A stretch of 10,989 nucleotides of DNA from a virus (taxonomy: Duplodnaviria > Heunggongvirae > Uroviricota > Caudoviricetes), in IMG/VR virus record IMGVR_UViG_2526164603_000035; one strand, given 5' to 3'. Of the stretch, positions 9,214-10,989 are shown piece after piece (position 1 is the stretch's first letter; each line of letters begins with the position of its first letter). A model generated the notes under the pieces. That model ran no database searches, was not told where the DNA came from, and was given only the letters and a program-made list of their open reading frames with translations. The position numbers and the translations under genes were made by a program.

Positions 9214-10626
9214 CTACATTGGCTGCTTCCAATTACTACTTACGTAACGGAATCTCGGATCCTCTGTTTTTGGCTCGGTATAATAAGAATCATCAATAGT
9301 AAAGTTCGACGCTAATTTATCCCGAAGCCCACCTAAACGTTCAATGCTTGTTAGTTCGTTAGTAACATCCTTGAAAACGGTAGAAAATGCTTTATGTTGT
9401 TTAGACTTCATAAATTCAGGAGTGCTCAGTGCAAACTCTTTATCAGGCAAACCTGGAATACCCACGAGTCCTGTCAATGAATTTATACATTTTATCAAAA
9501 AACTGCCTTGAATACCTTGATTTGATGGAACACCGTAGCTTCGTTTAATATCTCCAGATATTTTATCTAAATCACTTAGTAATTTTGTTACTTTTTTATT
9601 TCCTGCACTTATCCCCGATTCATCGTAGGTCACATGAATCTCTCGGATTACATCTCGACACGTACGAAAATGATCATGTGTTCTAAGCTCTAAAGCTGAA
9701 TTGATAACTTGAGAGACATTTCCTGTTTCGTTTGCTAGCCATGCAGAAAATATTGGTAAATCTAATGAAATAGTAGATGTGCGTCCATGATCTACAATTT
9801 CAGATCTTGCAGTACTGATTTTATCAGACAACGATTGCACCAACCTTGCAGTATAATCATGACCAAAAGCACCTGTTTTTTTCATCCAATGCAATTGATA
9901 TGCATGCCTTATTGGATGAATAAATGAGTCTGCTTTAAAATGCTTAGCAATGACGCTGTAATAAATAGATTTATATGCCAACCAATTTAGCGATGCGATA
10001 AACATTTCAAGTGAACGAGTCATACCTCCTTTACCGCGAGTAGATTTTTCCCTTTCTAGTTCAAATTCACGCTCAGTATATTCATGTCCAGATGAACTCA
10101 CTAGCTTCACATCGGTTGACCAGTACCCTTTCGTATCAGAAGCATCTGATAATTCATTAAAAATCGATGCACTTAGTTCACTATATTTCGCATATTCAGG
10201 AGTACCGGGCTGACCAAGCATTTTCATTGTTAAGTAATACACGCTAGACCGAAGATCCCATGTGCAAATCATATTCAGCTTAAGCATCTCTACAAGTTGC
10301 CTAAAATCATCGTCAACAAACTCCCCACCTCTAATTTCGGAAGTAATTTGCCGAGATTCAACTTGTGCTAACTGATCAAGTTCACTGAGTTGAAAATCAC
10401 TTTCAGATACAAATTTAATAAAGTCAAATTTAGCAATGCGTTTATCTCTATATTCTTTTTTATAATTATCTACACAGATCAGGGTATCGTAAAAAAGTAT
10501 CGCTTGAATAAGATTTTCAAAAGCGACTAAATCTCCGTTAATAGTATCTGGATTCTTAACAAGAATATCACCCAGTGTTCTTTCGACTGCTGTTAACGAA
10601 GCATTATCAATCAACGCATAAGACAT
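9214..10626 (-). CDS. Orphan 470-aa protein of unknown function in AT-rich cargo DNA (candidate defence or accessory gene)
   Basis: Long uninterrupted ORF with a strong SD (GGAGG) 7 nt upstream of the ATG. It is visibly AT-rich compared with the flanking phage structural genes. I see no Walker or other recognisable catalytic motifs; two R-x(5-6)-H spacings (IRHAYQLH, RDVIREIH) are noted only as weak hints. Confidence 0.75.
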   Translation of the reverse strand: MSYALIDNASLTAVERTLGDILVKNPDTINGDLVAFENLIQAILFYDTLICVDNYKKEYRDKRIAKFDFIKFVSESDFQLSELDQLAQVESRQITSEIRGGEFVDDDFRQLVEMLKLNMICTWDLRSSVYYLTMKMLGQPGTPEYAKYSELSASIFNELSDASDTKGYWSTDVKLVSSSGHEYTEREFELEREKSTRGKGGMTRSLEMFIASLNWLAYKSIYYSVIAKHFKADSFIHPIRHAYQLHWMKKTGAFGHDYTARLVQSLSDKISTARSEIVDHGRTSTISLDLPIFSAWLANETGNVSQVINSALELRTHDHFRTCRDVIREIHVTYDESGISAGNKKVTKLLSDLDKISGDIKRSYGVPSNQGIQGSFLIKCINSLTGLVGIPGLPDKEFALSTPEFMKSKQHKAFSTVFKDVTNELTSIERLGGLRDKLASNFTIDDSYYTEPKTEDPRFRYVSSNWKQPM

Positions 10627-10670
10627 TAAACTACCTCCATTAGATAATATCTAATAACATTATATTTCAA
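10627..10670 (-). promoter_or_regulatory. Candidate promoter and RBS for the 470-aa gene (perfect TATAAT on the minus strand at 10659-10664, then GGAGG)
   Basis: Hexamer read directly from the sequence. No convincing -35 element, so confidence is low. Confidence 0.25.
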
Positions 10671-10812
10671 TTAGGTTTAAAAATTGTGATACTTATGACA
10701 GATTTGAGTGACATTTTATCAATCTACTGATTTTGATGGTGAAATTTATTAGAAGGTATGCGTAGTGCTACGGGAGAAATGAGAAACGCGCCCAGCAATG
10801 GCGCATCCTTTC

Positions 10813-10989
10813 TTAAGCAAGTTGGCTAGTATCTATAGCATCCATCCAATCAGGAGCAATTCCCAAACGTTCCGCGAACTCTTCATTGGTCACGTCTTCC
10901 ATTGAGAGACTAGCCAGACAATCGTTAATTTCAGAATAGACGGGGGAAAGTAATAGGTATTCCCGCAACTCTTTCAGGTCTTTTTCCAT
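10813..10989 (-). CDS. Small acidic ORF upstream of the 470-aa gene (58 aa if the ATG at the window edge is the start; may extend beyond the window)
   Basis: Manual translation of the reverse complement: MEKDLKELREYLLLSPVYSEINDCLASLSMEDVTNEEFAERLGIAPDWMDAIDTSQLA, ending TAA at 10813-10815. It is followed on the minus strand by a GC hairpin (GCGCC-ATTGCTG-GGCGC) at about 10787-10803. Same strand as the 470-aa gene, 186 bp upstream. Confidence 0.4.
   Translation of the reverse strand: MEKDLKELREYLLLSPVYSEINDCLASLSMEDVTNEEFAERLGIAPDWMDAIDTSQLA

Follow-up and report, generated by a model that had tools for sequence, protein, structure and literature searches.

Hotspots in which conserved flanks enclose a slot whose contents differ by strain, and which hold known defence systems together with unknown genes, have been described for P2 and P4 (PMC9122126). 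The PICMI of the Vibrionaceae are minimalist satellites of small size that carry int, alpA and a replication gene, and the hotspot that lies just 3′ of the replication gene carries restriction-modification, retron, DRT and PARIS systems as well as a single gene, UP2, shown to be protective against phages (PMC10803314). Sedentary chromosomal integrons likewise contain anti-phage cassettes consisting of a single open reading frame (ORF) flanked by attC sites (bioRxiv 10.1101/2024.07.02.601686). Here we describe a gene for a 470-aa protein that lies in a stretch of DNA of 10,989 nt (IMG/VR record IMGVR_UViG_2526164603_000035; the whole stretch is referred to as the window), which is 100 % identical throughout to the chromosome of O157:H7 Escherichia coli at the tRNA locus argW. 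We lean slightly towards an explanation in which this gene is a one-gene cargo in a hotspot of an argW-integrated element and is likely to act as a single-protein defence factor against phages or mobile elements.

The argW-integrated elements of Enterobacteriaceae are roughly 9-10 kb long and carry interchangeable cargo. They resemble the P2/P4 hotspots in the arrangement of conserved flanks around a strain-specific slot, but their backbone, with an integrase, AlpA, an HUH rolling-circle Rep and a serine recombinase, is that of neither P2 nor P4, and unlike those hotspots the O157 copy is a decayed remnant. With PICMI they share small size, int, alpA and replication genes, and a hotspot downstream of the latter, although PICMI encodes a primase and integrates at fis, whereas the argW element has an HUH Rep, its site at argW and a terminal serine recombinase. 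The argW element thus resembles the minimalist satellites in architecture, known here from its genes, and no helper phage is known for it. UP2 of PICMI and the 470-aa gene are both single-gene cargoes, a likeness drawn from description and not from sequence comparison. The integron cassettes are matched by some homologues of the 470-aa gene, which are also single-ORF cassettes, between attC-type repeats in Vibrio vulnificus and close to the integrase in Stutzerimonas, although the window copy lies outside any integron and no tested cassette is known to be of the 470-aa family.

The cargo slot of the argW element

The genes of the argW element are arranged in the order integrase, 246-aa ORF, AlpA-type helix-turn-helix protein, three small ORFs, 'replication protein', conserved non-coding DNA and variable genes, followed usually by a 58-aa ORF and then by a divergent 208-aa serine recombinase. 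In a pairwise alignment with the element of E. coli A16 the similarity stops at ~9050-9055 and restarts ~68 bp past the window end, and similarity to three elements that retain the 58-aa ORF covers that ORF and the hairpin at 10784-10808 and stops at ~10755. Conserved flanks with a sharp loss of similarity are therefore present at both borders, and together these delimit an O157 cargo of ~1.7 kb (~9050-10755) made up of one gene together with an upstream region of its own and a hairpin on its 3′ side. The features of the cargo and its edge are as follows.

9050..9213, minus strand: cargo-specific 3′ region with an 11-bp hairpin at 9124-9153, past the stop codon (inverted repeat, folding z-score -2.6)
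9214..10626, minus strand: 470-aa ORF, the single cargo gene (ATG start; WP_000119352.1, phrog_13435)
10627..10755, minus strand: cargo-specific upstream region, presumed to hold its own promoter (alignment of four elements)
10634..10638, minus strand: Shine-Dalgarno sequence GGAGG, 7 nt before the ATG of the 470-aa ORF (read from the sequence)
10784..10808, minus strand: terminator-like hairpin directly 3′ of the 58-aa ORF, kept in sister elements; the final backbone feature before the cargo
10813..10989, minus strand: 58-aa acidic ORF, element backbone gene at the hotspot edge (ATG start; WP_000409798.1, phrog_35119)

The hairpin at 9124-9153 has no U-tract, and a terminator role for it is therefore unproven. 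Recognised defence systems are found among the alternative cargoes when these are searched with the PADLOC hidden Markov models (HMMs), and the cargoes seen in other elements are:

type III-A retron (PRTase_III-A, E=2.5e-83; RT_III-A, E=7.8e-152)
826-aa SIR2 protein (ThsA-like, E=3.9e-12)
169-aa and 913-aa pair, in Citrobacter (PDC-M28B/C-like, E=2e-34)
395-aa HNH endonuclease (no PADLOC match)
268-aa GTPase-domain protein with a 152-aa ORF (no PADLOC match)
330-aa and 821-aa pair (no PADLOC match)
insertion sequence (IS) elements with ORFs of unknown function

A profile of the 470-aa family finds no homologue among the alternative cargo proteins. Alignment of the elements shows the 470-aa gene to be a one-gene cargo cassette, complete in itself, that occupies the variable slot of a small mobile element integrated at argW. 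A first-pass annotation of the window, made from its letters and a list of its ORFs, had taken the gene for horizontally acquired cargo, and this part of its interpretation is supported.

The 470-aa gene and its family

The gene is listed in RefSeq as encoding a hypothetical protein; the product has a mass of 53 kDa and an isoelectric point (pI) of 5.9 and is predicted to be soluble and cytoplasmic. Several features singled out in the first-pass annotation are evident, namely a clean reading frame behind a strong ribosome-binding site and a low G+C content relative to the phage structural genes nearby (0.30-0.40 over positions 8800-10800 vs 0.46-0.53 in the P22-like genes at 5400-7800). Within the gene itself G+C is 36.2 %, falling to 25.7 % at third codon positions (GC3). 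The 1413-nt frame is unbroken in AT-rich DNA and has 233 homologous clusters of constant length at 54-85 % identity. In comparisons with four homologues, the closest of those compared (from Dickeya, Salmonella and two Vibrio), the ratio of non-synonymous to synonymous substitution rates (dN/dS) lies at 0.02-0.10; synonymous sites are saturated for the more distant ones. The homologous clusters and the low dN/dS indicate that the long frame is not due to chance, and the substitution pattern places the family under purifying selection. A full HMMER scan of 1.8 billion representatives brings the family to 315 clusters, whose members have a single domain architecture or fragments of it; the full-length proteins have ~430-485 residues, mostly 460-475.

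The statement in the first-pass annotation that the protein could not be placed in any family holds up well. There is no usable Pfam, PADLOC or NCBIfam match, and the sole matches of the 470-aa and 58-aa ORFs are to PHROG families without known function (phrog_13435 and phrog_35119 respectively); a DUF1140 match to the 470-aa ORF (E=0.069) was below the cut-off and was ignored. When 74 diverse family members were scanned against Pfam only scattered single matches appeared, and no metabolic or transport domain is detectable in the Pfam and NCBIfam scans. The family profile finds nothing below E=0.08 among PDB sequences, no Rfam family was found within the cassette, and WP_000119352 is not mentioned in the literature or the DefensePredictor supplements.

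The family spans many phyla and is AT-rich (36-40 % G+C) even where the hosts have 62-63 % G+C, a persistent bias that fits frequent transfer. It is rare on plasmids (4 records). Among complete E. coli genomes the gene is found intact, at ≥99 % identity, in only 316-317, and the carriers among the records listed are all O157:H7, O55:H7 or without a serotype label; in O157:H7/O55:H7 it stays intact although the surrounding element has decayed.

Comparison of 33 loci shows no conserved gene besides the 470-aa gene itself, and no antitoxin-like partner is conserved. Two candidate partners were considered and rejected: the downstream ORFs are unrelated to each other, and a gene for a 1321-aa SMC-like protein, upstream in some Pseudomonas, is present at 5 of the 33 loci and at variable distance. 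Some homologues are integron cassettes. The Vibrio vulnificus homologue is a lone ORF between two 123-nt integron repeats, in a 17 kb cassette array with 15 copies of the repeat, and that of Stutzerimonas nitrititolerans follows a 75-nt attC-like repeat with TAAC...GTTA ends, 440 bp from an integron-type integrase, although the next attC-like repeat comes only past an extra, unrelated 167-aa ORF. No attC-type flanking repeats were found at 36 other loci checked, a scan that did not include the O157 copy, and an integron context for the Vibrio tasmaniensis copy, where no repeats were found, is unconfirmed. Other homologues are solitary insertions, beside ars genes in Dickeya, after recD in Aeromonas, by parC/parE in Azospira, and in Shewanella. 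The Aeromonas hydrophila homologue has 451 aa and stands alone by recBCD as a fixed insertion, co-oriented with recD and 104 bp downstream of it in at least 20 assemblies.

Possible functions of the 470-aa protein

The structure prediction proposed in the first-pass annotation gave a confident AlphaFold model (pLDDT 84.7, pTM 0.87, from an alignment of 74 sequences down to 20 % identity), and a Foldseek search of the PDB with this model returned no significant match. Matches of the model to HAD-phosphatase and Rossmann/SDR folds had Foldseek probabilities ≤0.23 and were rejected. The most conserved part of the family is an N-terminal alpha/beta domain (D7, R16, G19, D32, E37, D47, D53, Y55 and R63), with further invariant residues downstream (W123, L132, P238, R240, P291 and R324). 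Five of the acidic residues (D7, D32, E37, D47 and D53), which are putative metal-site residues, are conserved at 89-100 % in the family alignment. The N-terminal domain of the model weakly resembles the VapC PIN nucleases, below Foldseek significance, and D7 stands immediately after strand 1, as does its counterpart in VapC. Neither the 470-aa query nor any of the 74 family members matches a PIN Pfam family, and alignment of the family profile with a VapC profile gives an hhalign probability of 0.35 %, so that a PIN assignment from sequence is rejected and 'PIN-like nuclease' is a lead and not a statement of family membership. The VapC/PIN ribonucleases (PF01850), with which the family shares no sequence or profile similarity, also differ in having an adjacent antitoxin, which the 470-aa gene lacks, and in size, the 470-aa protein being 3.5 times as large with a C-terminal part that is unmatched.

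Neighbours and allelic cargoes are among the grounds for a defence role. The 117 nearest neighbours in 32 genomes include Hachiman, Lamassu-like SMC, Cap4 nuclease, TIR, PIN_8, DUF4365, AbiLi-like and ParE genes. The Salmonella homologue adjoins AbiGi, Mrr_cat and BrxC/helicase/TerB genes, that of V. tasmaniensis adjoins TIR and SIR2-HerA genes, and a Pseudomonas homologue is near a PIN_8 protein. Proximity to defence genes thus recurs in the family but does not hold at every locus. The undescribed defence system that the first-pass annotation proposed is thus plausible and better grounded than it was, given a type III-A retron and a SIR2 protein in the same slot, although its description as a two-gene cassette has to be given up. 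In our judgement the chance that the 470-aa gene has an anti-phage or anti-element role is roughly even. With less confidence, the chemistry of its effector may be read from the acidic N-terminal domain, which would carry out metal-dependent cleavage of nucleic acid or processing of nucleotides, while the large helical remainder, which contains P238, R240, P291 and R324, would sense infection or restrain the effector; the outcome would be protection of the abortive-infection type.

Several observations weigh against a defence role. The position in a hotspot is guilt by association, and such slots also take non-defence cargo, for example the IS elements of strain 2015C-4498 and of another sister locus. 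No defence neighbours are present in 4 of the ~10 contexts annotated in detail (Dickeya, Aeromonas, Azospira and Shewanella). The search of PADLOC-DB v2.0.0, also suggested at the outset, gave no system HMM match to the protein at E≤0.1, which speaks against membership of a described defence system. Finally, a simple sigma-70 consensus scan of the minus strand of the 186-nt spacer (10627-10812) between the 470-aa and 58-aa ORFs found no promoter-like site, so that expression of the gene is plausible only; a perfect TATAAT is seen at 10659-10664, upstream of the 470-aa ORF.

The main rival is that the gene is mobile cargo with a selfish or accessory role other than defence, as an addiction-type toxin, a factor in competition between elements, an anti-defence protein, or a stress or metabolic enzyme. 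Such a role would suit the several homologues that are solitary among housekeeping genes, and integron arrays and hotspots also hold toxins and many other functions, with only ~10-18 % of the tested Vibrio cholerae cassettes being anti-phage (bioRxiv 10.1101/2024.07.02.601686). It would also suit the failure of the protein to match a known defence model, and AT-richness in GC-rich hosts is to be expected of any often-transferred selfish gene. Against it, where an allelic cargo is recognisable it is a defence system, and defence-type neighbours recur across unrelated genera; a toxin would sit poorly with the want of a conserved antitoxin-like partner, and an enzyme of metabolism or transport with the negative domain scans. 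We regard a non-defence role as possible but distinctly the less probable of the two.

If the defence explanation is carried further, the 470-aa family would be an unrecognised single-protein immune system with a fold that has no PDB counterpart and a distantly PIN-like N-terminal core rich in acidic residues and arginine, spreading autonomously as one gene, and the argW elements would be an undescribed, satellite-like platform for exchange. This fuller proposal is tentative, and we rate it somewhat below an even chance. The module would have spread through Proteobacteria and beyond as integron cassettes, as solitary insertions and in element hotspots. Should the protein protect against phages, it would add a small immune module, consisting of one gene and apparently of new fold, that essentially every matching E. 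coli O157:H7/O55:H7 genome retains and that occurs sporadically in environmental Proteobacteria, and it could affect the susceptibility of O157 strains to typing or therapeutic phages. The argW slot offers a natural experiment, in which near-identical backbones carry retron, SIR2, HNH, GTPase and other cargoes, and the element is a convenient source of further defence candidates, the 330+821-aa pair, the GTPase+152-aa pair and the HNH protein being likewise unclassified.

The 58-aa ORF, the element backbone and the adjoining prophage remnants

The 58-aa ORF, a hypothetical protein in RefSeq, is indeed a small acidic ORF 186 bp upstream of the 470-aa gene on the same strand, as first described (14 D+E vs 4 K+R, pI 4.05). 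There is no usable Pfam, PADLOC or NCBIfam match to it; a WYL_3 match (E=0.011) was below the cut-off and was ignored. Its family consists of 27 clusters, all from Enterobacteriaceae, and it is always ~300 bp from the resolvase (serine recombinase) gene, while the cargo downstream varies (the 470-aa gene, a retron, IS1 plus others, a 169+913-aa pair, SIR2 or a 330+821-aa pair), so that it is kept beside at least 5 unrelated cargoes. In tblastn searches it was not found next to any of the 32 distant homologues of the 470-aa gene examined. This fixed position with changing cargo, together with the lack of co-occurrence, identifies it by genome comparison as a backbone gene of the element and leaves a pairing with the 470-aa gene unsupported; it may be a small regulator or a recombination accessory factor. 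Past the window end, the interval that separates the 58-aa ORF from the serine recombinase gene contains inverted repeats GTCTCAATAGGGTTGT / ACAACCCTATTGAGAC and a third copy that is partial. Their conservation extends from E. coli as far as Citrobacter, and they may be sites for the recombinase or operators.

It follows that the first-pass suggestion of a regulator or partner did not survive, nor did conservation of the ORF pair across genomes, one of the checks that it had proposed. A two-gene system, in which the 58-aa and 470-aa ORFs were acquired jointly as effector with regulator, antitoxin or other partner, would accord with their proximity on one strand, with the inclusion of both in the segment replaced relative to E. 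coli A16, and with the poor U-tract of the hairpin after the 58-aa ORF, which might permit read-through into the cargo. However, the families differ greatly in range, that of the 58-aa ORF being confined to Enterobacteriaceae and that of the 470-aa protein occurring in many phyla, and the similarity among elements ends just past the 58-aa ORF and its hairpin, so that joint acquisition is very improbable. Marginally less probable still is the other early proposal, in which the gene belongs to the P22-like prophage next to it and serves the phage as a moron or accessory gene, for instance for superinfection exclusion or lysogenic conversion: P22-type gp16, gp7, gp14 and gp26 are indeed within 1.5-4 kb, and the gene appears in PHROGs and IMG/VR because prophage predictors extend over the locus, but the P22-like block is truncated (it has a gp16-acyltransferase fusion and a tail-needle gene without its N-terminus), the Rep remnant and putative origin of a different element lie between it and the 470-aa gene, tblastn finds no match to the family in 50,697 phage genomes, and no recognisable prophage is present among the homologue contexts examined in other genera. 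The family occurs in only four of the 2.9 million IMG/VR contigs, each 100 % identical to the window gene, and this identity makes it most likely that they represent the same O157-lineage locus. Both readings are essentially excluded, and the database comparisons show that the 470-aa gene should not be counted as a phage gene.

With the 470-aa gene assigned to the argW element as its cargo, the remaining features of the window are those of the element backbone and of the prophage sequences that it adjoins.

314-982: antirepressor of a lambdoid prophage end
2084-3328, minus strand: integrase of the lambdoid prophage end
3449-3523, plus strand: tRNA-Arg(CCU), argW
3649-4842, plus strand: intS
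5017-6153, minus strand: gp16-acyltransferase fusion of the truncated P22-like block
within the P22-like block, minus strand: gp7 and DUF2824/gp14
7297-7866, minus strand: tail-needle knob without its N-terminus, P22-like block
7849..8544, plus strand: remnant of an HUH-type rolling-circle Rep, N-terminal third lost (RefSeq start at 7897)
8545..9050, no strand assigned: conserved non-coding backbone, putative replication origin (repeats, conservation)

Beyond the window end are the 208-aa serine recombinase, a DUF4942 fragment and the csc sucrose genes. The ORF at 7849-8544 shares 96 % identity with the 'replication protein' of E. coli A16, where the frame has 350 aa and includes ...PHVHAI..., an HUH-like motif, and the gene is labelled 'rolling circle replication-associated protein' in other records. 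The O157 copy starts within the Rep frame, where this meets the truncated tail-needle gene of the P22-like block, and the element there is consequently without its integrase, alpA and the N-terminus of Rep. In O157:H7 the argW element is thus decayed and fused to a P22-like prophage remnant at ~7849-7866.

The non-coding segment at 8545-9050 is probably the origin of replication of the element, to judge from its repeats and its conservation. Positions 8700-9050 have an unannotated counterpart of ~86 % identity in 201 other E. coli genomes; AACGTCAAC is present twice at 8930-8949, three 23-nt AT-rich repeats lie within 8731-8904, and there is a weak palindrome of A-run, stem and T-run at ~8993-9047. 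The palindrome was considered as a terminator, but it folds no better than shuffled sequence and is not called one. A small, very basic ORF at 8547-8756 is frame-shifted between O157 and strain A16.

An Rfam match to HgcC at 1773-1895 on the plus strand is weak (25.6 bits vs a gathering score of 50, E=0.013) and is most likely due to chance. The ORF at 5017-6153 is chimeric, with its first 217 aa matching the P22 gp16 ejection protein and the remainder a C-terminal fragment of acyltransferase_3; its 3′ half is very AT-rich, and G+C falls to 0.28-0.31 near 4800-5400. The two tyrosine integrases (2084-3328, minus strand; 3649-4842, plus strand) point away from a single tRNA-Arg(CCU) gene, and this pairing shows that integrations at argW were tandem or successive, a lambdoid prophage lying to one side of the tRNA gene and the intS/P22-like remnant to the opposite side.

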